Origin: a virus
Reading direction: 5' to 3' (one strand)
Virus record (IMG/VR): IMGVR_UViG_3300005529_000001
Location: 144,882 to 208,881 of that record
Length of the DNA: 64,000 bases
Below, piece by piece: positions 15,238-55,824 of this stretch (within the stretch, counting starts at the first letter, position 1; the number at the start of each line of letters is the position of its first letter). The notes under the pieces were generated by a model, which did no database searches, was not told the origin of the DNA, and saw only the letters and a list, made by a program, of their open reading frames with translations. The translations under genes and the position numbers were made by a program.

Positions 15238-15510
15238 TCAGGCGCTCTTCTTGGTGGGATGGCCCGCCATCTTCGACCAGACTTCGAATGGGACCATCTT
15301 GAGCGCTTTCAATGCCATGTCAGCAGCGTCTGCCCACGCCTCCACACCAGCTTGGTCGTTGATCTCGCCTGACTTGACCAAGTCAATGATGTGTTGCTGC
15401 ATGTGCTCGCGAACGGCTTCCTTCTTCATGTAATCAGGATGAGCAGCGATACGAGCTTCCTCTATCGCTTTCGCAAACATCTGGCGCAGCCTACCGACTG
15501 TCGTCCGCAT
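15238..15510 (-). CDS. Hypothetical protein, MKTT-family N-terminus
   Basis: MRTTVGRLRQMFAKAIEEA closely parallels MKTTVGNLKAMVAQVIAE (53690-54004). Confidence 0.4.
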   Translation of the reverse strand: MRTTVGRLRQMFAKAIEEARIAAHPDYMKKEAVREHMQQHIIDLVKSGEINDQAGVEAWADAADMALKALKMVPFEVWSKMAGHPTKKSA

Positions 15511-15525
15511 TCTCGTAAGTATCGA

Positions 15526-16068
15526 TCAGCCCTGCATGCTTTCGGGCACTTTGATGCTGTTTACCTTCACCCGTGTGCCATCGGGCATCTCAACCTCTAG
15601 CTTCTCGTTGTCAGCCTGGAGTTCAGCAGCGAGTTCAGCGAGTTCGGGGGGCGGGGCCTGAGGCCGCTTGGGTTGCTTCTTGGGCGGGGGCGGGACCCGG
15701 GTCTGCTTGATCTGTCCCGGCTCTGCGGGCTTCAGGGGCACGGGCATGTCCTCTGAATTTGTCTCCTCGAACCCAGAAGGGTACCACTCCTGTGCTTTAG
15801 CAACCGCAGCCTCTACCATCGTGTTGATCCCGCTGGTCGCTCGCTCTAAGAGAGCTCTCTGGACCTTGGCAGCGGAGTCGAAGAATTCCCCCTCGACCCT
15901 GTCAATCGCAACGGGTTCACCAGCTGACGGACCACCGCGGACCATGTAGGTGACAGCTTGGCCCTCGAGAGTCTTCCGAGACACCTCCTCGACGACCTGC
16001 ATCGGGTAGATCTTGGTCTCCTTGTGGAGGACCACATACAGGATCTGGCCGACACGGTAAGATGTCAC
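15526..16068 (-). CDS. Hypothetical protein
   Basis: 180-aa ORF with a Pro/Lys-rich C-terminus. Confidence 0.4.
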   Translation of the reverse strand: MTSYRVGQILYVVLHKETKIYPMQVVEEVSRKTLEGQAVTYMVRGGPSAGEPVAIDRVEGEFFDSAAKVQRALLERATSGINTMVEAAVAKAQEWYPSGFEETNSEDMPVPLKPAEPGQIKQTRVPPPPKKQPKRPQAPPPELAELAAELQADNEKLEVEMPDGTRVKVNSIKVPESMQG

Positions 16069-16550
16069 TTTCGCTTCCCCTTGGTCACAGCAGCCTGACG
16101 TGCGGGCTTTTTCCGTGTGGGCTTGGTGGGTTCAGGAGCACCCCCATCATCGTCATCACCAGGGTGGAAGTGAGGACCGGTCTCCGGCTCGTGAAAGAGA
16201 GCTGACGGGTCTCCGTCAGGGCCGAGCTGTTCCTCTTCACCCATGTCATCTGCGATCCTGATGACATCGAGGATGGGTGCACCCGTTGTCATGACAACAA
16301 AATCCGGCGCTTCCTTGTTGAGCGGGATGTTAGCGCTCTTACAGAGAGCTGACACCTCTGCCCATAGCTGGGTCTCAGCGATGGAACGCTGCTCGCTCGC
16401 GGCCAGTGCTTGGCTCACCGTCCGCGACCCGTCAGGAGGTAGCAAGACCGACAGCACGTCACGCAGGTGTAGCAGCTGCACCTTGGTTAGCAACAGCTCC
16501 CACGTAGGTTGGGGAGTCAGCTGGATTGGTTTGTCCTTCTTGGCCGGCAT
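16065..16550 (-). CDS. Hypothetical protein
   Basis: 161-aa ORF with a 4-nt overlap to the downstream gene. Confidence 0.35.
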   Translation of the reverse strand: MPAKKDKPIQLTPQPTWELLLTKVQLLHLRDVLSVLLPPDGSRTVSQALAASEQRSIAETQLWAEVSALCKSANIPLNKEAPDFVVMTTGAPILDVIRIADDMGEEEQLGPDGDPSALFHEPETGPHFHPGDDDDGGAPEPTKPTRKKPARQAAVTKGKRK

Positions 16551-16572
16551 GATGCGATCCTACTACACACGT

Positions 16573-16869
16573 TCACTCAGTGGGATCGGTCAGCGCCTCG
16601 ATGAACAGGTCAAAAGCGTCACGACGTTGGACTGCGTTCTGGAGCTTGATGATCCGCAGAGCGATCTGGAGCGTTTTCATGTCCAGCTTCTCTTTGTACT
16701 CTTCGATCAGCTCTTTCTTGTCCTGCTTGAGCGTCTCAATCTCGTTGTCGATGTTCTCAGCCTTGGTCATGAACTCCTTGACGAGTTCACGGAGAGCATT
16801 GAGCTCATCCGGCTGCATCTCAGCAATCGCCTTGTCAACCGTGGGTGCGTTTTTCTTTCCTCGTGCCAT
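16573..16869 (-). CDS. Hypothetical coiled-coil protein
   Basis: 98 aa with heptad-like charged repeats. AAAGTAGGGTGgcagc upstream of the ATG. Confidence 0.4.
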   Translation of the reverse strand: MARGKKNAPTVDKAIAEMQPDELNALRELVKEFMTKAENIDNEIETLKQDKKELIEEYKEKLDMKTLQIALRIIKLQNAVQRRDAFDLFIEALTDPTE

Positions 16870-16901
16870 GCTGCCACCCTACTTTGCGGAGCGCTAAAAG
16901 A

Positions 16902-17222
16902 TCACTCATTGCGGAACGGTGGGCAACACTGGCCTTCGTGGTTGTCAACGAGCCGACACAAGCCCATCTTTCCCTCAGAATCATAGACAGGCGAGTTGCA
17001 ACGTGGTGCCCGTTCCGCTTCCGGCGTCCAGTTGTCGATATGGATGTTCGGAGCTGACAAATCATTTTCTGCGCCGAACGTGATCGTTGCTCCAGTCACG
17101 TTCTGACCAGCTTTACGAAGCTGCTTGACGAACTCCGCCGCCAGACGATCAGCGTCAGTCGGGCTGCTGTTGTGGTGACACCCGATGCCCTTGATTACGA
17201 TGGACCAGTTTCCCATGGTCAC
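16902..17222 (-). CDS. Hypothetical protein
   Basis: 106-aa ORF on the prevailing strand. Confidence 0.35.
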   Translation of the reverse strand: MTMGNWSIVIKGIGCHHNSSPTDADRLAAEFVKQLRKAGQNVTGATITFGAENDLSAPNIHIDNWTPEAERAPRCNSPVYDSEGKMGLCRLVDNHEGQCCPPFRNE

Positions 17223-17234
17223 ATCTTACTTCGA

Positions 17235-18323
17235 TCACAGCGACTTGATCTTGCTGATCGTCTGCTGGTAATCTTGCGCGATCGGAGAGTTTCCAAACTT
17301 CTTCGCTTGTTGTTGCAAGCTCTTGACGTAAAAAGCCTTCATCGACTTCTTGACGCCAACTAGCAGCTGCTGTTCTGCAGCTCGACGAGCGTTTGGCTCG
17401 ATCTGGGCCAACTTCTCTGCACCCTTGATTCGCTTGCCCAGCTTTTGTTGCAAGTCTTGGACCGAGTTCGCTTTCAACACTGCTTGCGCTTGCTTGTAGA
17501 CTTGCGTTAGGGGCGTCCTGATGAGTTGCTGCGCCTGCTGTCGCATCTTACGACCCAACTGGCTGTCGTTGACAGCAGCGATCAGTTTCGGGTTGTTGAG
17601 CATCTGGTCGCCGCTGGCTTGCTGTTTATCCGCATCTTCACGGATGACGCCCTCCATGTGCCCACCAAAGCCCATGTCGCCGTAGCCGCCGAGGTCATAG
17701 CCCCCACCACCTCCCATTGCCTTGTTGAGGTTCTTGTCATCCTTGCGATGGGGACCCTCTTCACCGCCCAGCTCTTTCTTGAGACGATCGAGGTAACCGT
17801 CAATGGTTCCTCCAGTGAGCGTGCTCAGCAGGCCGATCGCTGCACCTGGCGCTTTCTTTGCAAGCGAACCGATGATGAACTTGGCGGGGTCATACATGAA
17901 TGACAAGAACAAGAAATCTTCGTCCTTGAAGGCGTCCCAGTTCGCTTGGTAAACCTCAGCGTACTCCTGACGGATCTTGTCGATGTTCTCTTTTTCTTTC
18001 TGGAAGATCTCGTTGTACGAGTCTGTCAGGACCGGGATCAGAGTCGTAGCGATGGTCTCAAAAGCGACCCTAACGAGGGTCTGCGCTTTCTGGGACAGCT
18101 CTTTGGTCTTGCCCGCCGCAGTCTGGACTACGTCAACGAAGGGCCGAACGAAGATGTTGTAGAGCTGGTCGTTGGAGCCGAACGAGACTCCCCAGGGAGA
18201 GTTCGTGGCATCCCACATGGCCAGGTCATAGTAGGTGGAATCTCCACCAAACCCACCATCGTCCTCTTGTAGGACCTCTTGGACAAACTCCTTGAGAAGG
18301 ACCTTTTCAGCTAGACGCCCCAT
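17235..18323 (-). CDS. Hypothetical Gly-rich protein (possible virion component)
   Basis: 362 aa. N-terminus MGRLAEKVLLKEFVQEVLQE is T4 capsid-targeting-sequence-like. GGGGGYDLGGYGDMGFGG stretch. CCTATTTAGGGTGG immediately upstream. Confidence 0.4.
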   Translation of the reverse strand: MGRLAEKVLLKEFVQEVLQEDDGGFGGDSTYYDLAMWDATNSPWGVSFGSNDQLYNIFVRPFVDVVQTAAGKTKELSQKAQTLVRVAFETIATTLIPVLTDSYNEIFQKEKENIDKIRQEYAEVYQANWDAFKDEDFLFLSFMYDPAKFIIGSLAKKAPGAAIGLLSTLTGGTIDGYLDRLKKELGGEEGPHRKDDKNLNKAMGGGGGYDLGGYGDMGFGGHMEGVIREDADKQQASGDQMLNNPKLIAAVNDSQLGRKMRQQAQQLIRTPLTQVYKQAQAVLKANSVQDLQQKLGKRIKGAEKLAQIEPNARRAAEQQLLVGVKKSMKAFYVKSLQQQAKKFGNSPIAQDYQQTISKIKSL

Positions 18324-18338
18324 CCACCCTAAATAGGC
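18324..18338 (-). promoter_or_regulatory. CCTATTTAGGGTGG start-proximal motif upstream of 17235-18323
   Basis: Minus-sense gagCCTATTTAGGGTGGATG. Confidence 0.3.
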
Positions 18339-22475: not shown

Positions 22476-22769
22476 CTACCTCGAATCGGTGCTGGTTGGT
22501 GCGGGGTTGTCGACCTTGCCCGAGCGCTTCGCTGATGACAGCTCGCTCTTCAAGCGTCCGATCAGACGTGAGTAGTTAGCCCGCGCTTCGCTACCACGCT
22601 TCTGTTTGCTACGAAAGTGCATCAGTTCCTCGATGCGGCGTTCCAGGTCGCGGATGTGCTTGGTGGATCCGTGCTTCACCCGAGAGCCGTCACTGACGTC
22701 AGCTTCCCTGACTTTTCTTTCGACGACGAGTTCGACGAACTCTTTCAGGGTTTTCTTCGGGCTTGGCAT
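22476..22769 (-). CDS. Hypothetical protein
   Basis: 97 aa. N-terminus KTLKEFVELVVE resembles the T4 CTS (KTYQEFIAEA). Overlaps 22699-23022. Confidence 0.3.
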   Translation of the reverse strand: MPSPKKTLKEFVELVVERKVREADVSDGSRVKHGSTKHIRDLERRIEELMHFRSKQKRGSEARANYSRLIGRLKSELSSAKRSGKVDNPAPTSTDSR

Positions 22770-24176: not shown

Positions 24177-24208
24177 GATCTTCTCCTGTGATAACTAGGA
24201 GGTTCGAG

Positions 24209-24631: not shown

Positions 24632-25016
24632 CCTCGAATCCTACAACAACGTTGGGCCTGGAGACGAGGTCTTTGAAGACACAGTCAGCAAACCGAGCGT
24701 ATTCCTTGTCTAGCTCGGTCACGCGTTCAGCGGTCTTGGTCTGCACCCTGAGGCTCACTTCGCCCTCATCGATCCTGATCTGCGCGTTGTGCTGGACATC
24801 ACGCTCGTGGGCTAACAATGCGATGACAAACTGGTCACGTTGGTCGCCCTCGCGGAACGTGTAGGTCTTGTAGAGGGCGCCGTCAGCTTCGTGCCACCTG
24901 TCCATCGGGATGATGGGCGCTTGGGGCGTACGCGCTCTGATGGGCAAGCCACCGAGCTGCATCGGGCGCTGCGCTCGTTGGATGAACTGTTCGTTGAGTT
25001 GCGTTAGCTTGGTCAT
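24600..25016 (-). CDS. Hypothetical protein
   Basis: 138-aa ORF. N-terminus MTKLTQLNEQFIQRA. Confidence 0.35.
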   Translation of the reverse strand: MTKLTQLNEQFIQRAQRPMQLGGLPIRARTPQAPIIPMDRWHEADGALYKTYTFREGDQRDQFVIALLAHERDVQHNAQIRIDEGEVSLRVQTKTAERVTELDKEYARFADCVFKDLVSRPNVVVGFEDGDEDPTGDV

Positions 25017-25564
25017 CAGTTCTTTTGTGAGCCGGGCTCGTCTTCTGGGTATGTGTTATCAATTGTACCCTCTTGCCAGTGTTCTCGGACAGTCATTGAC
25101 GTGTCTGTAACGATCCACGCGCCAGGCGAGCTTGGAATGAAAACGGCGAGGATGACTTTGTCCCCTGGCTTGAAACGCGTCTTTTTGATGGGCTGGAATC
25201 CGGTGGGATCCATGTCAGCCGCGAGATCAGGGTAGCTGATCATAACGCTTGACCCGGCATCGTAGCTGTCACCAAACGCATGTTCGACTGTCGTTATTGC
25301 GGTACCCTTGATGAGGGGATCGCCGGCGGGCAAGACGATTGGGCACCCGTCAGCTTCACCAGGATCATTTTCAATCTCCTGCTTGTCAGTGATGTGCGTG
25401 CCAAGCAACGTTGCCATCTGCTGGGCGGCAGCATGGCACGCTTGTTCGTTGCCTTTGACAAACCAAGCACAAAGATCACCTTCCCAGTCAAACATGCACG
25501 TCATGAACTGGCCTTTTGCGGCTTCCGCAATCAGAGCACGAAGTTGTCTTAGAGTAGTTTTCAT
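25016..25564 (-). CDS. MKTT-family protein (candidate virion-packaged/ejected protein with CTS-like propeptide)
   Basis: N-terminus MKTTLRQLRALIAEAAKG. Paralogous N-terminus and near-identical upstream region to 25572-25961. Confidence 0.5.
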   Translation of the reverse strand: MKTTLRQLRALIAEAAKGQFMTCMFDWEGDLCAWFVKGNEQACHAAAQQMATLLGTHITDKQEIENDPGEADGCPIVLPAGDPLIKGTAITTVEHAFGDSYDAGSSVMISYPDLAADMDPTGFQPIKKTRFKPGDKVILAVFIPSSPGAWIVTDTSMTVREHWQEGTIDNTYPEDEPGSQKN

Positions 25565-25571: not shown

Positions 25572-25961
25572 TCACATCTCCCACTCGTCGCCCGTCCATT
25601 TCATGTCGCTGCCACCGCCAGCGAGATTCGCGACGGCTTCATCGTCATAGAAGTGAAGAACGTATCCGGGGAAATCGGACAATGCATTTTCATAGTATGG
25701 GCTATCAAAATCACCGAACGCTTGCAACGACCAACGGCACTGATCAGGTGAAAGCAACCCAGGCTCTTGTGGGTCCCAATCTCCCGTCTCTTTGGCGGCT
25801 TCTACGTTATCTTTGTAGAGTTCCAGTGCAGAAGCCCATGCTTCAGGAAAGAACTGCATGACCTGGTCAATTGACAATGGCACGGTATGCTGACCGCTAC
25901 TAATGTCTGGCTTGAGGGCTTCTTGAATCAGCTTCTTGAGCTTACCGATTGTTGTTTTCAT
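25572..25961 (-). CDS. MKTT-family protein (candidate virion-packaged/ejected protein with CTS-like propeptide)
   Basis: N-terminus MKTTIGKLKKLIQEALKPD. GGAG SD. Tandem with 25016-25564. Confidence 0.5.
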   Translation of the reverse strand: MKTTIGKLKKLIQEALKPDISSGQHTVPLSIDQVMQFFPEAWASALELYKDNVEAAKETGDWDPQEPGLLSPDQCRWSLQAFGDFDSPYYENALSDFPGYVLHFYDDEAVANLAGGGSDMKWTGDEWEM

Positions 25962-26734
25962 CCCAGCACCACAACTCCACCAACGACCGCTGCTTCCGTG
26001 AAGCTGCTGCCATGTGTCCAGATCCGACGGTCACGGTCGATGACACATGACCCACCCTTGTATGACATGTCACGTTCAGTGCCCACGCGGTTGCTGACGA
26101 CCACGTTTGCGCGTGTCTCCTCAACCAGCTCGACCCAAGCGTTGTCCGGGTAACCGTACGCAGCGCCCCAGTTCGTCAGCAGGGCGATGGTGTCAACGCT
26201 GCCCAGCTTGTAAAAACGCTGTGTTGTTGCATGGTGGATGTACGACTCACGGTAACGGTTCGATGCGTCTCTGCAGATCAGGACACCCAACCTTCCCGCG
26301 GGGGTGATGATGACCGGAGCGGGTGCCTCGCTGGGCTGTGCCCACAGGTTGTCGCTGCCATAGAGGTTGTGCTTCTGGGCGTTGCCCGCCAACCCGTTGG
26401 GTCCCACGACGGCGGCTGAGTTGTACAGCTTTCCCTCACAGAGCTCGGTGTAACCGAAGACGACGTAGCAACCAAACTTCCGGGTGATAGCTTCGAAAGC
26501 ACAGGTTTGGTAACCATCACGTGTCTGTGCGACCTCGACGGCTTCACGGGGCGAGTGCAGGTTGTAACCCCCGATACAAGTCTCGGGCAACACGACCAGC
26601 ATCGCGCCCTTGGCTGCAGCTTCGAACGTCAGCTCGAGCGCAGTCGCCAGGTTCTCTTGGACCCGCCCGAGCTTGGGCTCGTACTGGACCGCAGCGACAA
26701 CCTGTGTCTGTGGGATCGCGGTGACAAACTCCAT
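25958..26734 (-). CDS. Carbon-nitrogen hydrolase (nitrilase superfamily)
   Basis: Catalytic E-K-C motifs: LVVLPETCIGG, KHNLYG, VLICRDAS. Start set at the internal ATG (MEFVTAIP) forming TGATG with the upstream stop. Confidence 0.6.
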   Translation of the reverse strand: MEFVTAIPQTQVVAAVQYEPKLGRVQENLATALELTFEAAAKGAMLVVLPETCIGGYNLHSPREAVEVAQTRDGYQTCAFEAITRKFGCYVVFGYTELCEGKLYNSAAVVGPNGLAGNAQKHNLYGSDNLWAQPSEAPAPVIITPAGRLGVLICRDASNRYRESYIHHATTQRFYKLGSVDTIALLTNWGAAYGYPDNAWVELVEETRANVVVSNRVGTERDMSYKGGSCVIDRDRRIWTHGSSFTEAAVVGGVVVLG

Positions 26735-33236: not shown

Positions 33237-33244
33237 GACAGTAA

Positions 33245-42318: not shown

Positions 42319-45300
42319 ATGAGGGTCAGTCTGGGCGTCCTGAGGGACTACGTCTCCAACCTGTTGGTTGAGAATCGCATCGATGATGCACGTGAAAAAT
42401 ACCCCGACATCGAAGAGGATGTCTTCCAAAACCTCGTCGCGAACCAACCCGGCGGGTCGAACAACAAGTACCTGATGTGGTCAGCCAAGCAGGTTGACGA
42501 CGAGGTAATGCCTGAAGAGGTCATCATGGCCATCAGGTTGTTTCACGACAACGTTCACCGTCTCAAGCAAAAGGACATCAACCAGTACGAGAGCGTCGAA
42601 GCCCTCGACACCGCCATTGACGAGCTCCAGAAGAACAAGAGCAAGAGCCAAGAAGCCAAGCAAGCGAAGGCTGACACCCAGGTCATCTACAACGACGACA
42701 ACTGGCTCGTTGTCCGCCCGTACACTGCTGACGCATCATGCAAGTACGGCGCAGGTTCAAAGTGGTGCATCTCGGCCACTGCATCTCGCAACTACTTCAA
42801 CTCGTACTCAGAGACCAACAACAAGTTCTACTTTGTCATCGACAAGAAATCAACTAGCAACACGCCCAACTCAAAGTTCGCTATCGCTATCGTTGCAGCG
42901 GGCTTGGCTGCCGCCGGTCGCGAGATCCAGGTCTACAACGCCTCCGATAGCTTGGTGTCTCTGAACACCGTAGCTAGCGCCGTCGGTAGCAAGTGGCCTG
43001 AAATCTGGGAAAAGATCCAAGCTCACGTCGCAGCAAACCCGAAGACCCGTGAGGTCGAAGACGCTGAGAGAGCGACTGAAGAGCATGTTGCTGCGTTGTT
43101 GAAAGGCGAGAAGCTTAGCGACCAAGCGATGAAGAAGGTCGCCAAGAGCGGCAAGCTATCAAACCAAGTCATCAAGAAGATCCTCGGACGTTACGAGAAC
43201 TACACGGGACCCACCGATTACCGTGATGAACGACAGGACATCATGAACTCGTTGTCCAGCCGCGCCAGTGAGATGGAATCTGAAGGGGCGATGGCTGTAT
43301 TGAAGTGGATCTCAGAGAACAGCGCCAACAGCTATTGGCGTACTTCCTACCTCGAACGCATGTTGGCAGCCGCTCCCTTCAAACCAGAAGACTTCCGTGA
43401 GATCGCTAAGACTAACGATGAAGAGATCCTCGCTAACATCTTTAGTAACCCAGCAACTCCTGATGACGTAAAGCGAGTGATCTCTGATGCTGCAATGCGT
43501 TTCGTGTCGGAGTCAGCTACCCGAAAAGTTTACTGGGAGCTCATCAAGTCGGGTGCCATCACCAAAGAGCAGATGGCACACGCGATGGAGATGGATAACA
43601 AGAGGGGCTCATACAGGTACCTGACAAGCCAGATCCTCAACCATCCTGAAGACGTTCGCATGGAACCCGAGTTGGTCAAGATGTTAACCATCAACAACGC
43701 AGGAGAGTTCAAAAACCTGTTGCGGATCCCGAACGTCCCACACGATTTTGCTGTCAAGATCCTCAGCAAGCTGATGAGCAGCGAGAGCCTGAAGAAATAC
43801 GACATGCTCGAGTTGCTCCGGACAACACCGTTGGGTCCGAAGCAGATCGAGAAGCTGTGGGCTGACTGGCCCCAAGCAACCGTCAGGACAGCGTTGCTAC
43901 AAAACCCTGGGATCGGTGAGGGGAACGCTAACAAGTTCGCCAAAAGCAAGAACAGCGCGTACCGTTTTTCGGTTGCACACAACACCATCACTCCAGTTGA
44001 TGCGCTCAACACACTCTCCAAAGACGAGTCAGTCTCAACCAGGTCAGCTGTCGCTGCTAACCCCAAGACATCACCCGAGACGCTGTACACGCTAGCAAAG
44101 GACCAAGCTGTTGCGGTCAGAGCGAGCGTCGCTAGCAACGCATCGTCACCGACCAACCTTGTACGTGCTCTGAAACGAGACTCAGACGACTTTGTCAGGA
44201 AAGCTGCTCGGAAGACGCTCAAAGCTTTGGACGTGACAGAAGCTTACATCGGGATGGCGATGGGCATGCGTGGTTTGCTCGTTGAAGAGCTGACCGATGA
44301 TGATGTCACGCCTGACATCATGAACCCAAGCTGGCGTGACATCATTCCTAGCACCATTGACAAGGAAGAGTTTGTCGCGGTCTTTCTGTTGCAGAACAAT
44401 GGTAGCGCAACGCGAGAAGAGATCACCAAAGCGTACAAGGATTGGATGGGCAGCGCTGGTGGAGCGGGCGAGCTCTGGAAGACAAACAAGTGGAGTGACC
44501 AGATCATCCGCGGCATCATGTCTCAGGGTAAGGGCTGGTTCTGGTCGCCTCCAGGCATCAACAAAGGTGCTCTGTTTCGTCTGACGCCAGCAGGTGCGAG
44601 CGCAGCTTTGGACATTATCAGGAAACTCGCTCACCTCACGAACCTATCTTCTCCCGTACAGATCACGTCTGCCAAGGCTCGACCAGGAAAGACGTACTTT
44701 GTCAAGGGCGCTGAAGAAGCCCTTGACGTCACGGGCATGGAGAAGGGTGACCTTGAGGTCGAAGAAGTTGCAGCAAACTACAACAACGAGCCCATCAAGA
44801 CTGATGGGAAATACACGAAGCTGTCACCAAACCGCAGCTGGCGACAGAAGCGCCGCCAACGCAGCGTGAAGATGTTCAAGTACACCTCCCCAACAGGGGA
44901 AGTGAAGTACACTCGAGAGCTTCCCAAGGTCTCCGTCCCCAACAATGCCAAGGTACAGTTCATCAAGACATTCCACGGCCAGGCGACGAATGACAGGTAT
45001 TCCACCAGCGAACCCAACCGAGCGATCGTCAAGTACAACGACAAGTACCTGCTTGTCAAGTTCCCGATGTGGGCAAAAGAGGGTGGTGCTGTTCCAGACA
45101 ACTCCGAAAAGGAGACAAACGTACCGCCGCCCGTCAGGAAGTCTCCTCCACCACGTGAGCTGACGGGCGAACCCGCCGCTGCACCAGCACGAACTGGTGG
45201 GGGTGAAGCTCCCGCAGCTCCCCGTGGACCCAAAGTCGGTTACAAGATCTACGGCCGCCACCGTGGGGCTCCCGCTCACACGCGTCTGAAGGGCCAAGCT

Positions 45301-45432
45301 TACGCTGCACCTACAGACACCCAGTTCTCACCCGGAGAGCAAGCGACCATCCAGGTCGGTGCTGATGGCAAGCTGAAGGTCAAGAAAGTGGCTGGCGATC
45401 ACGAACAGACGTGGGACCCCGTCGAGGGTTGA
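42319..45432 (+). CDS. Large (1037 aa) protein with HEAT/LRV-type repeats; possible virion/ejected protein
   Basis: Clean 3.1-kb plus-strand ORF. Repeats of type VSTRSAVAANPKTSPETLYTLAKDQAVAVRASVASNAS (leucine-rich-repeat-variant-like). N-terminus MRVSLGVLRDYVSNLLVEN is CTS-like. ATACTTAG promoter-like motif upstream. Confidence 0.55.
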   Translation: MRVSLGVLRDYVSNLLVENRIDDAREKYPDIEEDVFQNLVANQPGGSNNKYLMWSAKQVDDEVMPEEVIMAIRLFHDNVHRLKQKDINQYESVEALDTAIDELQKNKSKSQEAKQAKADTQVIYNDDNWLVVRPYTADASCKYGAGSKWCISATASRNYFNSYSETNNKFYFVIDKKSTSNTPNSKFAIAIVAAGLAAAGREIQVYNASDSLVSLNTVASAVGSKWPEIWEKIQAHVAANPKTREVEDAERATEEHVAALLKGEKLSDQAMKKVAKSGKLSNQVIKKILGRYENYTGPTDYRDERQDIMNSLSSRASEMESEGAMAVLKWISENSANSYWRTSYLERMLAAAPFKPEDFREIAKTNDEEILANIFSNPATPDDVKRVISDAAMRFVSESATRKVYWELIKSGAITKEQMAHAMEMDNKRGSYRYLTSQILNHPEDVRMEPELVKMLTINNAGEFKNLLRIPNVPHDFAVKILSKLMSSESLKKYDMLELLRTTPLGPKQIEKLWADWPQATVRTALLQNPGIGEGNANKFAKSKNSAYRFSVAHNTITPVDALNTLSKDESVSTRSAVAANPKTSPETLYTLAKDQAVAVRASVASNASSPTNLVRALKRDSDDFVRKAARKTLKALDVTEAYIGMAMGMRGLLVEELTDDDVTPDIMNPSWRDIIPSTIDKEEFVAVFLLQNNGSATREEITKAYKDWMGSAGGAGELWKTNKWSDQIIRGIMSQGKGWFWSPPGINKGALFRLTPAGASAALDIIRKLAHLTNLSSPVQITSAKARPGKTYFVKGAEEALDVTGMEKGDLEVEEVAANYNNEPIKTDGKYTKLSPNRSWRQKRRQRSVKMFKYTSPTGEVKYTRELPKVSVPNNAKVQFIKTFHGQATNDRYSTSEPNRAIVKYNDKYLLVKFPMWAKEGGAVPDNSEKETNVPPPVRKSPPPRELTGEPAAAPARTGGGEAPAAPRGPKVGYKIYGRHRGAPAHTRLKGQAYAAPTDTQFSPGEQATIQVGADGKLKVKKVAGDHEQTWDPVEG

Positions 45433-50542: not shown

Positions 50543-50551
50543 GTAACTATG
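50543..50551 (-). promoter_or_regulatory. CATAGTTAC promoter-like motif upstream of 50249-50524
   Basis: Minus-sense CATAGTTACttgacGGAGGattcaatcATG, the same architecture as upstream of 4299-5366. Confidence 0.3.
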
Positions 50552-50812: not shown

Positions 50813-51807
50813 TTCGTCACTTTTTGGATGTACGCGATCGTCTTATCAAGGCCCTGATCCAATGTCACGACTGGGTTCCATCCCAACAATGTTTTTGCTC
50901 TGCTGATGTCCGGGCATCGGCGTCTCGGATCATCGATGGGCAGGTCGCGCATCTGAATGTTGTTGTTGATACCGTTTGAGTCTAGAGGAATGTTGTGTAC
51001 CTTGTTGATCACCTTGCACGCCAGATGCCAGACAGTAAACTCATCTGGGTTACCCAAGTTGACAGGACAGCGTGGGTTCTCTTTGAGAGCTCCCATTGCA
51101 ACGATGCCCCGGATCAGGTCATCAACATAACAAAACGACCGCGTCTGCCTACCCTCGCCATAGACCGTCAGCTGTTCGTTCTTGAGAGCTTGGCGGATGA
51201 AATTGCTGACGACACGCCCATCAAACGGGTCCATGTTAGGACCGTAAGTGTTGAAGATCCTGACAAGACGAGCGTCAACTCCCTCCTGATTGAGGTAATC
51301 AAAACATAGAGCTTCCGCAGCGCGCTTTCCCTCGTCATAGCACGAGCGTGGACCGTATGAGTTGACACAACCCTTGTAATCTTCCCGCTGCGGTGACACA
51401 TCTGGGTCGCCATACACCTCGCTGGTTGACGCATGAACTAGCACTGCGTCATAGTGATCAGCGAGTCGCAGCATCCGTTCAGTGCCCACAACGCAGGTCA
51501 ACATCGTGTGGATGGGCTGTTCCTGATAGCGTGGTGGCGAAGCAGGACACGCAAAGTTATAGATGAGATTGAGCCCACGGTGGTGGTACTGCCATCCGTT
51601 GACATGGCTAGCGATCGCCGGGTCGGTGATGTTGCTCTGGGCGAAGCTGAAGTTCTCGTAAGAACACAGGTCTTTCAGGTGAAGAGAGCCCTTGTCAGAC
51701 GAGCTGAAATCATCAACGCCGAGGACCCTGTCGCCCTTCTCAAGGTGGTGTTTCGCCAGGTGCGATCCCAAGAACCCCGCTGCGCCCGTCACCAGAACGT
51801 TCTTCAT
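50809..51807 (-). CDS. UDP-glucuronate decarboxylase (UDP-xylose synthase, UXS)-like SDR
   Basis: MKNVLVTGAAGFLGSHL and YGDPDVSPQREDYKGCVNSYGPRSCYDEGKRAAEALCFDY closely parallel UXS ([40 protein letters not shown]). Confidence 0.75.
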   Translation of the reverse strand: MKNVLVTGAAGFLGSHLAKHHLEKGDRVLGVDDFSSSDKGSLHLKDLCSYENFSFAQSNITDPAIASHVNGWQYHHRGLNLIYNFACPASPPRYQEQPIHTMLTCVVGTERMLRLADHYDAVLVHASTSEVYGDPDVSPQREDYKGCVNSYGPRSCYDEGKRAAEALCFDYLNQEGVDARLVRIFNTYGPNMDPFDGRVVSNFIRQALKNEQLTVYGEGRQTRSFCYVDDLIRGIVAMGALKENPRCPVNLGNPDEFTVWHLACKVINKVHNIPLDSNGINNNIQMRDLPIDDPRRRCPDISRAKTLLGWNPVVTLDQGLDKTIAYIQKVTK

Positions 51808-52147
51808 CTGCAGACACTACCCCGTGTTCTACGTCCTGTTCAGGGTACGCAGATCGGAAGATATCGAGCAACTCACGTGCCAGAGTCGCGCCCTGTTCAC
51901 CCTCAAGCTGTTGGTTAAACCAGAACATGAACGTGCTCTGGATTGTGTGATAAGCGTGTTCATACGCGTCCTGTTCGGGCATCCTGATTATGAGGCCCTC
52001 AACGAACCTTGATAGGATCGATAACGCTTCCGATTCATACTCTCTCTCCCTGTTTGGGTCGTCAGGAGAGCAGTATCCCAGCGGGTCACGTTCGAAAAGG
52101 TGTTTGGTGAACTCTTCTAGGAGTTGCGAGCGACTCTTCTTCATCAT
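51740..52147 (-). CDS. Hypothetical protein
   Basis: 135-aa ORF. The C-terminal 68 nt overlap the UXS start. Confidence 0.3.
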   Translation of the reverse strand: MMKKSRSQLLEEFTKHLFERDPLGYCSPDDPNREREYESEALSILSRFVEGLIIRMPEQDAYEHAYHTIQSTFMFWFNQQLEGEQGATLARELLDIFRSAYPEQDVEHGVVSADEERSGDGRSGVLGIAPGETPP

Positions 52148-52713: not shown

Positions 52714-52722
52714 CATACTTAC
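52714..52722 (+). promoter_or_regulatory. CATACTTAC promoter-like motif upstream of 52728-53687
   Basis: Plus-sense agCCATACTTACccatcATG in the divergent intergenic region with the azurin gene. Confidence 0.35.
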
Positions 52723-52727: not shown

Positions 52728-53687
52728 ATGAAACCACAGCTGACAGAAGCTCACGTTGCCGAGATCATGGAACACTTGCTGGAGCGTTTCGGCGAGCCCA
52801 TCGGCGATGCACAGGGTGATCGCCAAGGGATCCCATCCAAGGGCGGTCGCAAGGAAAAGATGGGCAACCGGGGCTTCGGTGCGAAGCTTGAACACGTCGG
52901 GCTGCCCGGAGCGTGTGGGGGTTGTGGCGGCATGATGGGAATCGAGGGCGACACTTGCACTAACTGCGGCGAGATGCCCAACGCCCTGGAGCCCTCTCCC
53001 AGCCCGCCCAAGACTGCAGGCAACAGCGTCGCCATCGTTGTCAAGGGATCAACACCCGAGGGTGGCAGCCGCGGGGGCAAGTTCGCCCAGGGCCTGAAGG
53101 TCAAGGACATGGACGGCATCCCATCAACGGGATCAGGCCGGGGCACGCAAGCTCCGGCATCCCCTCCGAAACCGATGCCCAAGGCTCCGGCTCCCGGTCC
53201 AGCTGAGCCCACCCCCATGCCAGCAACGCTCGATCAGGCTGACCTTGCGGGTGCTGATGAGCTCGACGAAGAGTCGACAGAAGACAAGCAAGAGCGTCTG
53301 CACTATGATATCGACCGTGATGGCGAGGTTGGTGAGAGCCCGGAACACCGTGAGAAGGTTCTTGGTCACGAAGACGATGAGCTCGACGAAGATGCGATGC
53401 CAAGCGGCAGCTCTTCGCCCCCTCCTCCCCCGTCTAGCAGCTCTCCCGCTCCAGCACCAAAGCCACCGTCGCCCCCGCCATCATCAGGTGGATCATCACC
53501 CCCTCCCCCAAGCGGCGGGTCGTCATCGTCTCCGCCGCCCGCTGAGGAGATGCAGGAAGACATGGACCTCGATGAGGTCACGCCTCCCGGACGTGAGAAG
53601 CAAGTCAAAGCCCTGAAAAAGAAGGGCGACGTCAAGAACCCATGGGCAGTCGCTTGGTCTTCCTACAACAAGAGTCACAAGAAGTGA
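52728..53687 (+). CDS. Intrinsically disordered Pro/Ser/acidic-rich protein with CTS-like N-terminus
   Basis: Start set at the ATG (MKPQLTEAHVAEIMEHLLE), 5 nt downstream of CATACTTAC. The GTG extension would overlap the divergent azurin start. SSSPPPPPSSSSPAPAPKPPSPPP repeats. Confidence 0.45.
   Translation: MKPQLTEAHVAEIMEHLLERFGEPIGDAQGDRQGIPSKGGRKEKMGNRGFGAKLEHVGLPGACGGCGGMMGIEGDTCTNCGEMPNALEPSPSPPKTAGNSVAIVVKGSTPEGGSRGGKFAQGLKVKDMDGIPSTGSGRGTQAPASPPKPMPKAPAPGPAEPTPMPATLDQADLAGADELDEESTEDKQERLHYDIDRDGEVGESPEHREKVLGHEDDELDEDAMPSGSSSPPPPPSSSSPAPAPKPPSPPPSSGGSSPPPPSGGSSSSPPPAEEMQEDMDLDEVTPPGREKQVKALKKKGDVKNPWAVAWSSYNKSHKK
53395..53545 (+). repeat. Coding low-complexity repeat encoding SSSPPPPP/SGGSSPPPP units
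   Basis: Direct reading within 52728-53687. Confidence 0.35.
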
Positions 53688-53689: not shown

Positions 53690-54004
53690 ATGAAAACAAC
53701 AGTTGGTAATTTGAAGGCGATGGTTGCTCAAGTCATCGCTGAAACCCGTGGTCACCTCAACCCACAGGAAGTGCTGACCACATACGAAGACCTGTACATC
53801 AACTCGGTCAGGAACAACCGCGCTGGTGACCACGCTATGGGCCCGGCGGGAGTTGTCCCGCTGGAGACGCTAGCCAGCATGCTCGGTGCATCGCCCGAAC
53901 AGCTCGCTGCTGTGATGCACAAAGCGGGTCTGATTGTTGATCGTGACGGCAACGTGGTCGAGCGCGGCAACACGCCGCCCCCGATGAAAGCCGTCAAGGG
54001 CTAA
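53690..54004 (+). CDS. MKTT-family small protein
   Basis: Start set at the ATG 2 nt after the upstream TGA. N-terminus MKTTVGNLKAMVAQVIAETRG. Confidence 0.5.
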   Translation: MKTTVGNLKAMVAQVIAETRGHLNPQEVLTTYEDLYINSVRNNRAGDHAMGPAGVVPLETLASMLGASPEQLAAVMHKAGLIVDRDGNVVERGNTPPPMKAVKG

Positions 54005-54008
54005 GGGC

Positions 54009-55193
54009 TTAGTTCAGTGAGACGGTGAAGCCGACCTTTGAAAGGTCGACTGGGTGGGTCGTCCACTGGAGCCTGATGGGCTCACCTGCCGCAGCTTGCC
54101 TCTTGTTCCAGTGCTCGCAGAACATGTCGAGCGCTCGCTCGTCGATTGCACGGAAAGAACCACCGTGAGGCAACCAGCCGATGACAGGCATCGGGGTGAC
54201 CTTGGTGTTGCCCTCGCCGAGACGGTACTTGCGAATCGCCATCGGGAGCTGCCCTTCCTGGACGCGGAACAACGTCTTGGCTTGCTCGATGAACTGCTCA
54301 CCCGTCAGACGGGCCTCAACCAGCTTGCGGACCGGGTCTTCGACCTCGTTGAGCTCGGGCAGCATGCCCTCGTTCAGGGCCTCTTCCTCTGCCTGTTGCT
54401 CGAGGTAAGCAAGCGTTGACTTGAGGGCGTTCTCTCTCAGAGAGTTTCGTTCCATGGCGAGTTCTTCCTTTTCTTTGATCAGGTCTTTGACACACTTCAG
54501 AAGCTTGGTTTCGTCGATCTCAATCAATGACGTTGCCTTGATGCTGTTGCAGAATCGACGGACCGCCAACTCTTCCCAAGCGTATTCAATGTTACGTCCG
54601 TACTCGTGCATCAATCGCCAAGCTTGCTGGCGGTACCAAGTCTCGCTAAGTTCGGGACCCGGCGCGGTCTTGGCTGCGTCGCCGTAAGCTTCCGCGCCCT
54701 CAACCGGGTCATGGCCCATCGGTTCAGCCTTGGGTTGGGAGACACCTGCCTCATGGAGCTTAGCTGCCTTGCGCTTGCGATAGATGAGACGCAGTTCATC
54801 ATCATTCTTGAACTTCTTCAACATCTCGCGGACAGTCTCGAGCGGGACGCGGCTGGCGACGATGTGACGGACCTTGGGCTCAGCATCGCTCGTCAGCTTG
54901 CCAAGGAATTTCTCGGGCACCACACGTGCCGCGAACTCACGGACTGACGGGTGACGGTGATCGAGGAAACCCGTTGTCACTTGAGCGAGGAAATCAAACC
55001 GAGACGAACGTCCCGTGCGGTCAAGGACATCCATCCAGCTGTTTGCTGACTGGACAACGTCTTCGATCCGGCCTTCAATGATGACCGCTGGACCAAGGAC
55101 GCGCTTGATCTCATTCTTGAGTTCCTCAACTGCCCTCTCTTCGTCGAGGGTCCGCTTGACAGCGGCCTGTAGGTCCCTGAGGTTCAGACGCAT
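54009..55193 (-). CDS. Hypothetical protein with CTS-like N-terminus
   Basis: 394 aa. MRLNLRDLQAAVKRTLDEE. CATACTTAC promoter-like motif plus AGGAG SD upstream. Confidence 0.45.
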   Translation of the reverse strand: MRLNLRDLQAAVKRTLDEERAVEELKNEIKRVLGPAVIIEGRIEDVVQSANSWMDVLDRTGRSSRFDFLAQVTTGFLDHRHPSVREFAARVVPEKFLGKLTSDAEPKVRHIVASRVPLETVREMLKKFKNDDELRLIYRKRKAAKLHEAGVSQPKAEPMGHDPVEGAEAYGDAAKTAPGPELSETWYRQQAWRLMHEYGRNIEYAWEELAVRRFCNSIKATSLIEIDETKLLKCVKDLIKEKEELAMERNSLRENALKSTLAYLEQQAEEEALNEGMLPELNEVEDPVRKLVEARLTGEQFIEQAKTLFRVQEGQLPMAIRKYRLGEGNTKVTPMPVIGWLPHGGSFRAIDERALDMFCEHWNKRQAAAGEPIRLQWTTHPVDLSKVGFTVSLN

Positions 55194-55212
55194 GCGTGCA
55201 CGGCTCCTGGGG

Positions 55213-55221
55213 GTAAGTATG
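55213..55221 (-). promoter_or_regulatory. CATACTTAC promoter-like motif upstream of 54009-55193
   Basis: Minus-sense CCATACTTACccccAGGAGccgtgcacgcATG. Confidence 0.35.
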
Positions 55222-55225
55222 GCCC

Positions 55226-55450
55226 TCAGGGGCGTCCCCTCTTCATCGGTCGAGACAGTCCCATCTTCTCAAGGTACGAGCTGATCTGCTTCTTGACATC
55301 GTTGGGCACCATGACGCTTTCTTTCTGGTGCGCAGGATCGTCTTCGAGCAGCTCGCTATATGTCTCGTCAGGCCGGGAGCCACCCCAACAATCGGGTTCG
55401 ATCTCCTCAGATAACAGGTTCCGTAGCTGGCCCAGGGTTAAGCGCATCAA
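55226..55450 (-). CDS. Small protein with CTS-like N-terminus
   Basis: MMRLTLGQLRNLLSEEIEPD. 74 aa. Confidence 0.4.
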   Translation of the reverse strand: MMRLTLGQLRNLLSEEIEPDCWGGSRPDETYSELLEDDPAHQKESVMVPNDVKKQISSYLEKMGLSRPMKRGRP

Positions 55451-55824
55451 GCACCCTCAAGGGGGAACCAATCATCACGGTGTGGGTCCCAGGTTGCCAG
55501 CTCGACTTGCGGCATCTCAGCCATCGAGACCCGTAATTGCTGTCCGATCTTGAACCACAACGACCGGGCCTTGATGACCTGTGGATCGTCAGCAAACGGG
55601 TAATCTGGGAACATGTCAGGAACGACTTCGGCCCACGCGTCAGCAGCGCCGGGGAACATGTGCTCGACCTGGGCAGTTGACAGCTCTTGGTTCTCTTCTT
55701 CGACCTTGCCGAGCTTGAATTGCCGGCCGCCGGGCTTAGTCTTTCGCAGGCCTCCTGACGGTGTCCCGAACTCGTTCAGAGCCTCAGCAAGCAGCTGCCG
55801 GACCTTGCCCCATGTCGTTTTCAT
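55447..55824 (-). CDS. MKTT-family protein
   Basis: MKTTWGKVRQLLAEALNE. 4-nt overlap with the downstream gene. Confidence 0.45.
   Translation of the reverse strand: MKTTWGKVRQLLAEALNEFGTPSGGLRKTKPGGRQFKLGKVEEENQELSTAQVEHMFPGAADAWAEVVPDMFPDYPFADDPQVIKARSLWFKIGQQLRVSMAEMPQVELATWDPHRDDWFPLEGA

Follow-up and report, generated by a model that had tools for sequence, protein, structure and literature searches.

A shared N-terminal peptide resembling the T4 capsid targeting sequence on otherwise unrelated genes of a large uncultured phage

Why would so many unrelated proteins of one phage begin with the same short peptide? The window, i.e. the whole stretch of 64,000 nucleotides that we analysed, is part of a ~370-kb uncultured phage genome, and such a peptide stands at the N-terminus of ~21 of its otherwise unrelated genes (curated set, listed below). 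All 17 ORFs for which an earlier note had reported the peptide were found in place with the peptides it described. Our analysis adds 6184-6498 and, more weakly, 51740-52147 and 16573-16869, and the 1037-aa LRV-repeat protein, previously named as a possible member, does carry the peptide.

The shared peptide and the genes that carry it

5412..5975 (-), NUDIX hydrolase: start MSKRLLREYIVEVL, linker of ~50 aa, NUDIX domain from residue 67 (Pfam NUDIX 8e-23)
6184..6498 (-), 104-aa protein: start MSSLLRQFIHATLAEL; directly follows the lysozyme gene; peptide kept in 2/2 orthologs
7778..8080 (-), 100-aa protein: start MARTPVTNALIKKLVKEAM; kept in 5/5 orthologs
15238..15510 (-), 90-aa protein: start MRTTVGRLRQMFAKAIEEA; kept in 13/17 orthologs
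16573..16869 (-), 98-aa protein, borderline member: ...MQPDELNALRELVKEF; class-A box, not class B
17235..18323 (-), 362-aa all-alpha protein: start MGRLAEKVLLKEFVQEVLQE-DDGG, then a Gly-rich linker
22476..22769 (-), 97-aa protein: start MPSPKKTLKEFVELVVE; kept in 10/11 orthologs
25016..25564 (-), 182-aa protein: start MKTTLRQLRALIAEA; in an operon led by the class-B box at 28634
25572..25961 (-), 129-aa protein: start MKTTIGKLKKLIQEA; in the same operon (class-B box at 28634)
26734..28230 (-), 498-aa acidic protein: GTG start, (M)TKVVISDKALREMVREALDS; kept in 8/12 orthologs
30287..30964 (-), 225-aa acidic protein: start MMRLRMGDLRQIMSEA
31747..32022 (+), 91-aa protein: start MTEQLLRQFIKETL
32955..33236 (-), 93-aa protein: start (GTG)KPLTEADVLRVMREE
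38656..39177 (-), 173-aa protein: start MDEKSLRALVREEIE
42319..45432 (+), 1037-aa LRV-repeat protein: start MRVSLGVLRDYVSNLLVEN; Pfam LRV 6e-06
51740..52147 (-), 135-aa protein, weak candidate: start MMKKSRSQLLEEFTKHLFE; class-B box absent nearby
52728..53687 (+), 319-aa protein: start MKPQLTEAHVAEIMEHLLE; degenerate core, yet a class-B box upstream
53690..54004 (+), 104-aa protein: start MKTTVGNLKAMVAQVIAE; immediately downstream of 52728-53687
54009..55193 (-), 394-aa protein: start MRLNLRDLQAAVKRTLDEE
55226..55447 (-), 73-aa protein: start MRLTLGQLRNLLSEE; downstream of 55447-55824
55447..55824 (-), 125-aa protein: start MKTTWGKVRQLLAEA

The leaders follow the consensus M-x(2-12)-[LVI]-[RK]-x-[LFIYM]-[VIL]-x-E-[AV]-[LI], often with an acidic or Gly-rich linker next. 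The cargo behind them is mutually unrelated, as had been claimed: an all-vs-all BLAST of the proteins trimmed of their first 25 residues gave one weak match only. The NUDIX assignment is borne out by Pfam. The term 'sigma-like' for 26734-28230 is unsupported since this protein has no recognisable family in Pfam or PHROGs; its length of 498 aa is also that of the public gene call. The gene first placed at 55226-55450 bears the peptide, while its start is most likely the ATG at 55447 (MRLTLGQL...). Overall, the starts chosen here agree with independent public gene calls in 7 of the 8 motif genes that those calls cover. In 16573..16869 the distance to the motif is 25 residues if counted from the first ATG and 9 if counted from Met17; distant relatives, too, have this gene beside that of the 362-aa protein. 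The leaders of the degenerate members 52728-53687, 51740-52147, 16573-16869 and 54009-55193 may be non-functional.

That the window carries one N-terminal peptide on many unrelated genes is confirmed by counting. The loose T4-derived pattern h-x-x-h-h-x-E occurs within the first 25 residues of 17/97 window proteins against 2.4 expected (Poisson p=1.2e-10), and across 1000 shuffles of the N-termini the mean was 3.5 and the highest count 12. For the strict core [LIV][RK]x[LIMFY][LIVMF]x[EQ] we counted 12/97 proteins with a match within the first 21 residues, compared with 5 matches over ~18,700 internal positions, a 22-fold excess. Using an automated pipeline without curated starts, we still obtained 8/90 (strict) and 13/90 (loose). 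When run on a DnaE-encoding Streptomyces phage as an unrelated control, this pipeline gave 0/122 strict matches, and its 8/122 loose ones (6.6%) equal its own internal expectation, i.e. no N-terminal excess.

These counts bear on the idea that the peptide reflects chance, composition or translation, either as a generic amphipathic helix or as a start requirement of leaderless mRNAs acting on nucleotides. Short amphipathic patterns are indeed common, as the loose matches of the control phage illustrate, and many window genes appear leaderless. However, N-termini carry the motif 7 to 22 times as often as internal positions and more often than in any of the 1000 shuffles, and the control phage has neither an N-terminal excess nor a strict match. 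The ~17 leaderless class-A genes lack it, except for the borderline 16573-16869, whereas it is present on those motif genes that lie within operons and have Shine-Dalgarno sites. It is also conserved as amino acids: among orthologs with as little as ~26% identity, L/I/V replace one another and so do R/K. We consider this explanation highly improbable; enrichment, ortholog conservation and the control phage have effectively refuted it.

The peptide is retained in orthologs of all eight cargo families sampled (5/6, 2/2, 5/5, 13/17, 20/24, 10/11, 8/12 and 5/5; the 5/6 are those of the NUDIX gene), and ~75 of 643 genes across 24 related loci have it. The counterpart of 22476..22769 in two relatives (L012, L013) is fused to a downstream 406-aa protein and the peptide is still N-terminal. 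Orthologs of 15238-15510 start with MRISVGRLRQLFAEA, MKLSLSRLRSLIREA, MVNILKEFILEAIK or MSAKVLKSFIREAIK, so that MKTT-type and KEF-type leaders interchange within one ortholog family, and we therefore regard them as one signal and not, together with MMRL, as the separate subfamilies proposed earlier. The 362-aa protein has 152 homologs, and its leader LLREYVRxVLxEDDGG, with L10 and E20 invariant, is kept in more than 100 of them. Its gene adjoins the portal gene in distant relatives and is syntenic with the head module in two loci (L025 and L027). Its AF2 model has a pLDDT of 73.6. No structural match marks it as a head protein, which counts against the capsid reading.

The motif genes of the window are set among metabolic and replication genes and outside any structural module, which counts against a capsid role. 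The T4 ip and alt genes are likewise scattered.

A promoter-like box upstream of the motif genes

The class-B box TAyTTA accompanies many of these genes. TA[CTG]TTA is scarce in the window (19 occurrences, 52 +/- 6.5 expected) and 16 of the 19 are placed as promoters. It lies within 40 nt upstream of 10/21 motif genes versus 5/76 other genes (OR 12.9, p=4.5e-5); among the remaining boxes are the one that leads the lysozyme operon and one before a putative LD-carboxypeptidase gene (ORF 56989-57942, assigned by eye).

5383..5388 (-), box CATACTTAC with GGAGG Shine-Dalgarno: upstream of 4299-5366 (355 aa, motif absent)
7760..7765 (-), box CCTATTTAGGG: 11 nt upstream of lysozyme gene 6498-7754
8086..8091 (-), box CCTAGTTAC: 11 nt upstream of 7778-8080
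15516..15521 (-), box GATACTTAC: 11 nt upstream of 15238-15510
18330..18335 (-), box CCTATTTAGGG: 12 nt upstream of 17235-18323
24192..24197 (-), box CCTAGTTAT with Shine-Dalgarno: upstream of 23796-24176; heads the operon with 22476-22769
28629..28634 (-), box CCTACTTACC: 46 nt upstream of 28232-28588
31719..31724 (+), box CATACTTAT: 28 nt upstream of 31747-32022
33242..33247 (-), box GATAGTTAC: 11 nt upstream of 32955-33236
39184..39189 (-), box CCTACTTACC: 12 nt upstream of 38656-39177
42306..42311 (+), box GATACTTAG: 13 nt upstream of the LRV protein gene 42319-45432
50544..50549 (-), box CATAGTTAC with Shine-Dalgarno: upstream of small membrane protein 50249-50524
52716..52721 (+), box CATACTTACC: 12 nt upstream of 52728-53687
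55214..55219 (-), box CATACTTACC: 26 nt upstream of 54009-55193, then Shine-Dalgarno
55831..55836 (-), box GGTATTTAG: 12 nt upstream of 55447-55824
57949..57954 (-), box CCTACTTAGGG: 12 nt upstream of ATG 57942 (ORF 56989-57942)

The box at 7760..7765 heads an operon in the order lysozyme (class-B), 6184-6498, a small membrane protein and NUDIX, and the operon headed by 28629..28634 includes 26734-28230, 25572-25961 and 25016-25564. Relatives have this box in front of their capsid, scaffold, 300-aa, gp13 and 362-aa family genes. The box is probably part of a lineage-specific structural promoter, and the genes that share it suggest late timing.

Likeness to T4 leaders and the head module of relatives

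In the T4 capsid targeting sequence (CTS) MKTYQEFIAE (PMC8442874), targeting is driven by residues 4 and 7 and processing by residues 8 and 10 (PMC9026906). In the window motif, the hydrophobic residues and the Glu are spaced like these genetically mapped positions of IPIII (4, 7, 8 and 10): in the clade logo, position 0 is L/V/I, +3 is L/F/I/Y/M, +4 is V/I/L and +6 is E. The N-termini of T4 gp24 (MAKINELLRE), gp22 (MLKEQLIAEA) and gp67 (..ARKLFAEAM) also resemble the window leaders. In 90% of instances V/I/L stands two residues ahead of the Glu, which is the T4 preference, whereas phiKZ and SPN3US use A/S/G (PMC5694885).

The prohead protease and major capsid gene that the earlier note suggested looking for were found, as Peptidase_S77 and Gp23, in two contigs collinear with the window. 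These syntenic relatives (309 and 340 kb) have a T4-type head module including the gp21-family protease. Loci L078 and L011 both lie on the 309-kb contig: L078 encodes Peptidase_S77 (6e-25) together with Gp23, Portal_T4 and a terminase of T4 type, and L011 is collinear with the window (19/29 genes, 49.5% identity). L184 and L014 both lie on the 340-kb contig. The protease evidence comes from relatives at ~50% protein identity to the window, and we infer that the source contig itself encodes the enzyme. The relatives' scaffold is acidic, gp22-like and 670-770 aa long, and small CTS-bearing proteins flanking protease and scaffold start with MKLNRSELKSIIKECLLELAQEG, MKTSRVQLKAIIKEIMVEILSEG or MKLTSKLLKKIIEEEV. 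Their capsid proteins have VLKE|SN, LIQE|SN or LLKE|SN aligned with FLTE|AEIGG of T4 gp23, thus keeping (L/I)-x-E where gp23 is cleaved.

The earlier view of a T4-like CTS with an (L/I/M)-x-E site on a set of packaged proteins is indirectly supported by the spacing, the promoter, the protease, the small proteins beside it and the capsid site; its framing as a signal outside T4-like phages is not. Portal, protease, capsid protein, terminase and gp13 neck protein are all T4-type in this lineage, and calling the genome 'not T4-like' was wrong because its head is T4-type; the DnaE replicase alone is non-T4. Near the head modules of many environmental T4-superfamily contigs, CTS-like N-termini are frequent, and variable internal proteins with CTS-like leaders were already known in T-even relatives (PMC9026906).

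The peptide could instead be an uncleaved helix docking proteins on the core of the prohead or some other late assembly, with the Glu serving binding. Late co-expression and head-module association fit this equally, targeting and processing are genetically separable in T4 (PMC9026906), and the 362-aa family is conserved past the first Glu through VLxEDDGG, which exceeds the needs of a bare cleavage site. We nevertheless find it unlikely: the Glu sits exactly at the T4 processing position with V/I/L two residues before, syntenic relatives have the gp21-family protease and the (L/I)-x-E at the capsid cleavage position, and the motif is followed by flexible Gly-rich or acidic linkers, as would suit a leader that is cut off.

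Family searches including Pfam and PHROGs gave no recognised virion function for any motif cargo, which would fit a tag unrelated to capsids, such as a degron or client signal (for phage proteasome-like Ntn hydrolases or GroEL) or a cytoplasmic or membrane docking helix for late proteins. An adjacent proteasome-beta/HslV-like pair (35591-36148 and 36153-36722; Pfam Proteasome 3.6e-4, below cutoff) and a GroEL gene adjoining the head module in relatives point the same way. Against this, the proteasome-like genes belong to an operon for nucleotide metabolism that lacks a class-B box, the motif agrees with the T4 CTS at every functional residue and also stands on small proteins between protease, scaffold and capsid genes, and the motif peptides of the window genes lack the hydrophobic stretch that secretion or membrane signals typically have. 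Such a tag appears quite unlikely to us.

A proposed route into the head

We think it likely that the shared peptide serves both as a capsid targeting sequence of T4 type and as a propeptide, and the reading as a capsid-targeting, protease-processed leader appears well supported by indirect evidence. The tagged genes would be co-transcribed with head and lysis genes from the TAyTTA-containing, lineage-specific structural (probably late) promoter. The amphipathic leader would then dock the proteins on the scaffolding core of the assembling prohead, i.e. the acidic gp22-like scaffold of 670-770 aa and small core proteins. After closure of the Gp23-type shell, the gp21-family serine protease (Peptidase_S77) would cut after the Glu of h-x-E, freeing the cargo inside the head, and the cargo would enter the next host cell together with the DNA. 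Core docking, cleavage at the motif Glu, packaging and ejection are inferred for each cargo protein. To our knowledge, tag-based packaging of a 1037-aa protein and enzymes would go well beyond anything documented in T4, which counts against the capsid reading.

The mechanism itself is already known from T4, and the novelty would lie in the unusually large cargo set under one tag. Such a tag could allow injected proteins to be predicted from sequence alone.

The N-terminal leader and its cargo in the window

The window has a GC content of ~55% and is densely packed with genes, mostly on the minus strand, and our curated set contains about 21 genes, including a few weak ones, whose proteins begin with a common short peptide (the leader; we call these genes tagged and the protein parts behind the leader the cargo). 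All 17 of the open reading frames (ORFs) that the earlier note had cited for this pattern exist, with the N-termini as quoted. The peptide, 10-20 residues in length, occurs strictly at the N-terminus, and its core begins 3-12 residues past the Met in all strong members. Using the 97 window proteins as the gene set, we found the strict core [LIV][RK]x[LIMFY][LIVMF]x[EQ] within the first 21 residues of 12 proteins, compared with 5 internal matches over ~18,700 positions, a 22-fold excess. The looser pattern h..hh.E, which was derived from T4 genetics and is independent of the list in the earlier note, occurs at 17 of the 97 N-termini versus 2.4 expected (Poisson 1.2e-10), and 1000 shuffles of each N-terminus gave a mean of 3.5 and a maximum of 12 such matches. 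An automated pipeline without curated starts recovered 8/90 strict and 13/90 loose matches. The identical pipeline gave 0/122 strict and 8/122 loose matches on 100 kb of an unrelated DnaE-encoding Streptomyces phage, the latter number being what the phage's own internal frequency predicts. The objection that the motif could be a generic helix is answered by these counts, as the leader is 7- to 22-fold over internal positions and the unrelated phage has no excess. Public gene calls, made independently, agree with the start for 7 of the 8 tagged genes that they cover. The cargo proteins are mutually unrelated as had been claimed, with one weak match only in a BLAST comparison that left out the first 25 residues. 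The exact ORF starts, the enrichment, the control, the gene calls and the unrelated cargo together confirm the observation.

Searches of the cargo proteins against Pfam and PHROGs gave NUDIX and weak LRV matches only. The 498-aa protein (26734-28230) had been called sigma-like, a label that is unsupported since neither database gives a match. We searched this protein and the 362-aa protein (17235-18323) against GenBank phages by tblastn and found nothing, so there is no cultured phage with virion proteomics for either family. AlphaFold models the 362-aa protein as all-alpha, the leader being disordered, and viral structures searched with this model by Foldseek gave no match at E < 0.78.

The window comes from the ENA metagenome contig ERZ27279688:k141_1055159 of 369,506 bp. 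Both ends of this contig map inside the window with a junction at ~13,363, indicating that the assembly is circular or terminally redundant. No near-identical DNA was found in GenBank phages and the closest DnaE match has ~30% identity, hence there is no close GenBank phage. No tRNA genes were found in the window. Its products include a CCA-adding enzyme and two NUDIX proteins besides the following.

Window features referred to in the text
6498-7754, phage lysozyme
30961-31719, minus strand, Fe/Mn superoxide dismutase (SOD)-like protein, phage-encoded, with an SOD C-terminal domain (7.5e-19)
35591-36148 and 36153-36722, minus strand, two adjacent paralogous proteasome-beta/HslV-like Ntn hydrolases
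46362-50171, DnaE-type replicase

The N-terminal ~130 residues of the SOD-like protein have no family match, and its gene lies directly upstream of the tagged gene 30287-30964.

Promoter boxes

Hexamers of two kinds are found 11-13 nt before start codons without a Shine-Dalgarno sequence. The first one (class A, TAnnnT) precedes ~17 metabolic and replication genes; it starts exactly 12 nt upstream of the ATG and is often extended with TGn. This arrangement suggests leaderless mRNAs transcribed from -10-type promoters, distinct from the TAyTTA class.

Genes with a class-A box upstream (examples)
12264-13412
16065-16550
18339-18800
33805-34980
37669-38622
41721-42272
50809-51807
60911-61738

The second one (class B) reads (C)CTAyTTA or CATACTTA. 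We found 19 TA[CTG]TTA sites on both strands of the window versus 52 +/- 6.5 in shuffled sequences, and 16 of the 19 have a promoter-like placement. This depletion, with nearly all copies at promoters, suggests selection against stray copies. Ten of the promoter-placed boxes lie directly before tagged genes and three head operons of tagged genes, i.e. the lysozyme operon, the operon from 28634 and the operon from 24197; the remaining ones precede a putative LD-carboxypeptidase, a small membrane protein and a 355-aa protein. Overall, a box is present within 40 nt upstream for 10 of the 21 tagged genes versus 5 of the 76 others (odds ratio 12.9, p=4.5e-5). The late promoter of T4 is TATAAATA, unlike the TAyTTA box used here.

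The leader could in principle be due to chance, or to a translation effect on leaderless mRNAs. The controls on shuffled sequences, internal positions and the unrelated phage largely rule out this reading, and we reject a nucleotide-level or leaderless-translation explanation because the class-A leaderless genes do not have the motif while genes internal to operons do. We regard it as very improbable.

The two NUDIX genes differ in both features. The gene at 5412-5975 has the leader and belongs to the lysozyme (class-B) operon, and the one at 18339-18800 has no leader and follows a class-A box; the pair may represent a packaged and an intracellular form of one activity. The 355-aa protein (4299-5366, minus strand) has a class-B box plus a GGAGG Shine-Dalgarno sequence but no leader, and judging from its box it appears to be co-regulated with the tagged genes. 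It has no Pfam match and contains ...NDTLGDCVIAGG..., a stretch that recalls the active site of cysteine peptidases.

Related loci and the T4-type head module

The leader is conserved across the related IMG/VR loci. The core is N-terminal in ~75 of the 643 genes in 24 such loci, and its internal rate is 3.3e-4 per position. The leader is kept in the orthologs of eight cargo families (5/6, 2/2, 5/5, 13/17, 20/24, 10/11, 8/12 and 5/5). We collected 152 homologs of the 362-aa protein from public metagenomes, over 100 of which open with LLREY(V/I)RxVLxEDDGG; behind it come a Gly-rich linker, which is variable, and the conserved domain. Neither L10 nor E20 varies in this family, the result for E20 being independent of the search pattern. 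In a logo of 84 distinct instances across the clade, position 0 is L61/V15/I11, +3 is L53/F/I/Y/M and +4 is V48/I26/L16, with R/K at +1, A at +7 and L at +8, while the Glu at +6 was required by the search pattern. Two residues before the Glu, ~97% of the instances have V/I/L/F/M.

The orthologs of the 90-aa protein 15238-15510 start with MRISVGRLRQLFAEA, MKLSLSRLRSLIREA, MVNILKEFILEAIK or MSAKVLKSFIREAIK. The earlier note had kept MKTT and KEF leaders as separate subfamilies; single ortholog families switch between the two, so they represent one signal. The leader also stays N-terminal in a gene fusion. The tagged gene 22476-22769 (minus strand) and the downstream gene 21251-22471 (406 aa) are separate in the window and fused into one 721-aa ORF, with the leader still N-terminal, in a related locus (L012, 4443-6608); in another one (L013, 3815-5023) the same type of tagged protein heads a longer ORF of 402 aa.

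The head genes were found in relatives. The earlier note had proposed a search for a prohead protease and a major capsid gene elsewhere in this genome; the flanks of the source contig that we examined beside the window carry repair and metabolic genes only, and a Peptidase_S77 and a Gp23 capsid gene are present on the contigs of two collinear relatives. One of these, IMGVR_UViG_3300037010_002844 (309 kb), bears a locus (L011) with 19 of its 29 genes matching the window in order, from 28588 down to 8609, at a mean identity of 49.5%. Its head locus (L078, 54.8% GC) encodes Portal_T4 (1.5e-61), Gp23 (1e-74), Terminase_6N, a gp21-family Peptidase_S77 (6e-25) and a 667-aa acidic scaffold-like protein, and small proteins among these head genes start with MSNKITLPRLRKIIAEEL, ..MSRQQLKAIVKECLVEILQEG and MKLTSKLLKKIIEEEV. 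The other, IMGVR_UViG_3300036772_000425 (340 kb), bears the related locus L014 and a head locus (L184) with two genes having both a class-B box and the leader just past the capsid gene. A gp21-family protease is hence encoded on both collinear genomes. In two homolog searches with proteases of the clade, none of the best 120 matches of either came from a contig of 369,506 bp.

In the two most distant relatives of the 362-aa family (L025 and L027), the 362-aa gene adjoins a T4-type head module in the order Portal_T4, a 300-aa protein, Peptidase_S77 (1.3e-23), a ~155-aa protein starting with MKLTKSEFKEMLKECIVELLTEG, a 160-aa protein, an acidic scaffold-like protein of 717-769 aa and Gp23, with gp13 further along past the capsid protein. 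Using proteins of these two loci we collected 26 and then 80 + 80 head-module loci from IMG/VR. The T4-type head module is present in L025, L027, L031, L036, L050, L184, L194 and L196 as well. The closest deposited proteases are those of Microcystis phage Mel-JY01 (47%) and of Flavobacterium phages and cyanomyophages (~40%). The statement that this genome is not T4-like thus has to be revised, as the head modules on its relatives' contigs show that the lineage has a T4-superfamily head.

The TAyTTA box precedes the genes for the major capsid protein, scaffold, gp13 neck protein and the 300-aa and 362-aa families in these relatives, which makes class B the structural promoter of the lineage. 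It is presumably a late promoter. As the box is common to the lysozyme operon and the relatives' head genes, the tagged genes are predicted to be co-expressed with the head genes.

We also made several observations on the head loci themselves. The protease N-termini in L025, L027, L031 and L078 are leader-like, LL(K/Q)E(F/Y)..F(E/D)Y. The T4-type portal protein of L078 (4619-9130) is 1503 aa long because of an intein with an HNH endonuclease inside. A peptide deformylase gene lies between the protease and the scaffold in L078 (11047-11544), L194 (11060-11554) and L196 (11069-11560). In more distant relatives, a gene for a full-length chaperonin of the GroEL type lies a few genes from the portal and head module.

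GroEL-type chaperonin genes in more distant relatives
L024, 5176-6864
L027, 959-2626
L031, 2592-4343
L036, 1873-3567
L050, 2606-4342

Proposed function and known systems

The closest known system is the capsid targeting sequence (CTS) of T4, MKTYQEFIAE (PMC8442874). Suppressor genetics of the T4 internal protein IPIII assigned residues 4 and 7 to targeting, and 8 and 10 to processing (PMC9026906). The clade leader has the same spacing, with hydrophobic residues at IPIII positions 4, 7 and 8 and Glu at 10, and the T4 head proteins start alike (gp24 MAKINELLRE, gp22 MLKEQLIAEA, gp67 ..ARKLFAEAM and gp21 MNEPQLLIE). As in T4, a short leader of 10-20 residues precedes unrelated cargo, a bulky aliphatic residue stands two before the Glu, the lineage has a gp21-family (Peptidase_S77) protease and a gp20/gp22-like/gp23 head module, and the cargo genes are scattered outside that module. 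The clade leader differs in being usually longer, in its near-obligatory Arg/Lys at +1 and in being often preceded by MK(T/L)T-x-G; the system here is known from sequence alone.

We consider it likely that the leader is a capsid targeting propeptide of the T4 type. The tagged proteins would be made together with the head proteins, the leader would dock them on the scaffolding core, the gp21-family protease would cut it after the Glu, and the freed cargo would be kept in the head for injection. The leader could instead be a docking helix that stays uncleaved, which we think unlikely. On the clade capsid protein VLKE/SN, LIQE/SN, LLKE/SN and MLNE/SL align with the gp23 cleavage site of T4, FLTE/AEIGG (the slash marking the T4 cut), and this (L/I)-x-E site lies ~30 residues before a conserved VRR; the protease specificity for (L/I)-x-E thus appears to be retained there. 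The leader could also be a tag for some other late process, e.g. one involving the phage proteasome-like proteins or GroEL. However, the two Ntn hydrolases have no class-B box and are located in a nucleotide-metabolism operon, for which reason we set them aside as the processing enzyme, and we regard this alternative as quite improbable. Both hydrolases start with MTCIVGL, with Thr right after the Met; one of them matches Pfam Proteasome at 3.6e-4, below the cutoff, and their operon adjoins an ORF read by eye as a putative thymidine kinase.

The targeting propeptide of the T4 type can be set against other known systems. T2, T6 and other T-even relatives have CTS-like leaders on variable internal proteins (PMC9026906); there, too, the CTS loads differing proteins into the capsid, and cargo turns over while the leader is kept. 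Their cargo consists of small basic proteins in close kin of T4, whereas the cargo here is large, often acidic and partly enzymatic, and the clade lineage has only head genes in common with T4. Jumbo genomes are also found in phiKZ, 201phi2-1 and SPN3US, where a gp21-related protease (gp175 or gp245) cuts many head and ejection proteins after Glu at A/S/G-x-E (PMC5694885) and the propeptides are believed to direct proteins to the prohead interior. Those propeptides are mostly >100 residues with no common leader; we reject this type since the leader here is short and common, with V/I/L/F/M rather than A/S/G two before the Glu. In P1, an N-terminal segment of at most 30 residues of DarB, an injected anti-restriction protein, suffices to load a protein or reporter into the capsid (PMC9024508), whereas the Dar proteins have no common consensus and P1 has no T4-type head or gp21-type cleavage logic. 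A Sec/Tat signal peptide, for which we required a basic n-region followed by 10-15 residues of hydrophobic h-region (plus, in the case of Tat, a twin-Arg), was rejected by inspection, as the leaders (e.g. LRALIAEA, LKEFVQEVLQE) are charged and amphipathic and have no unbroken run of hydrophobic residues.

The mechanism is already known from T4, as is the swapping of cargo behind CTS-like leaders in T-even phages (PMC9026906), and in an automated count CTS-like N-termini occur in 12-17% of the genes around head modules on many environmental T4-superfamily contigs. What is new is the density, with no fewer than 17-21 genes tagged within 64 kb outside the head module versus four cargo proteins in the whole of T4; the cargo types, unlike those of T4, which include a NUDIX enzyme whose class-A paralog in the window is untagged, an LRV-repeat protein of 1037 aa (42319-45432) and large acidic proteins; the setting, genomes of 300-370 kb (~370 kb here) with a DnaE replicase, again unlike T4; and the TAyTTA promoter box linked to the leader. 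We tentatively speculate, while thinking it somewhat doubtful, that this lineage with its T4-type head and DnaE has turned the CTS into a general loading system by which dozens of proteins are packed and injected.

If so, the density in the window could mean at least 50 injected proteins per genome, including a NUDIX hydrolase and the 1037-aa repeat protein, and the leader plus TAyTTA would be a sequence tag by which the effectors that a phage injects can be listed from nothing but metagenomic data. Provided that the tag acts as in T4, the proteins bearing it reach the host before any phage gene is expressed; proteins of this class counter restriction and reprogram the host cell in T4 and P1. 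Finding injected proteins is difficult unless virions have been purified, and here they could be listed from sequence for uncultured very large phages. The list would give candidate anti-defence and takeover factors, e.g. a packaged NUDIX hydrolase with an unpackaged paralog. The leaders would also form a natural set for loading large or acidic proteins, of interest for protein delivery by phage heads. These viruses also show that a T4-type head and a large set of cargo can occur together with a replicase of the bacterial type in a jumbo phage.
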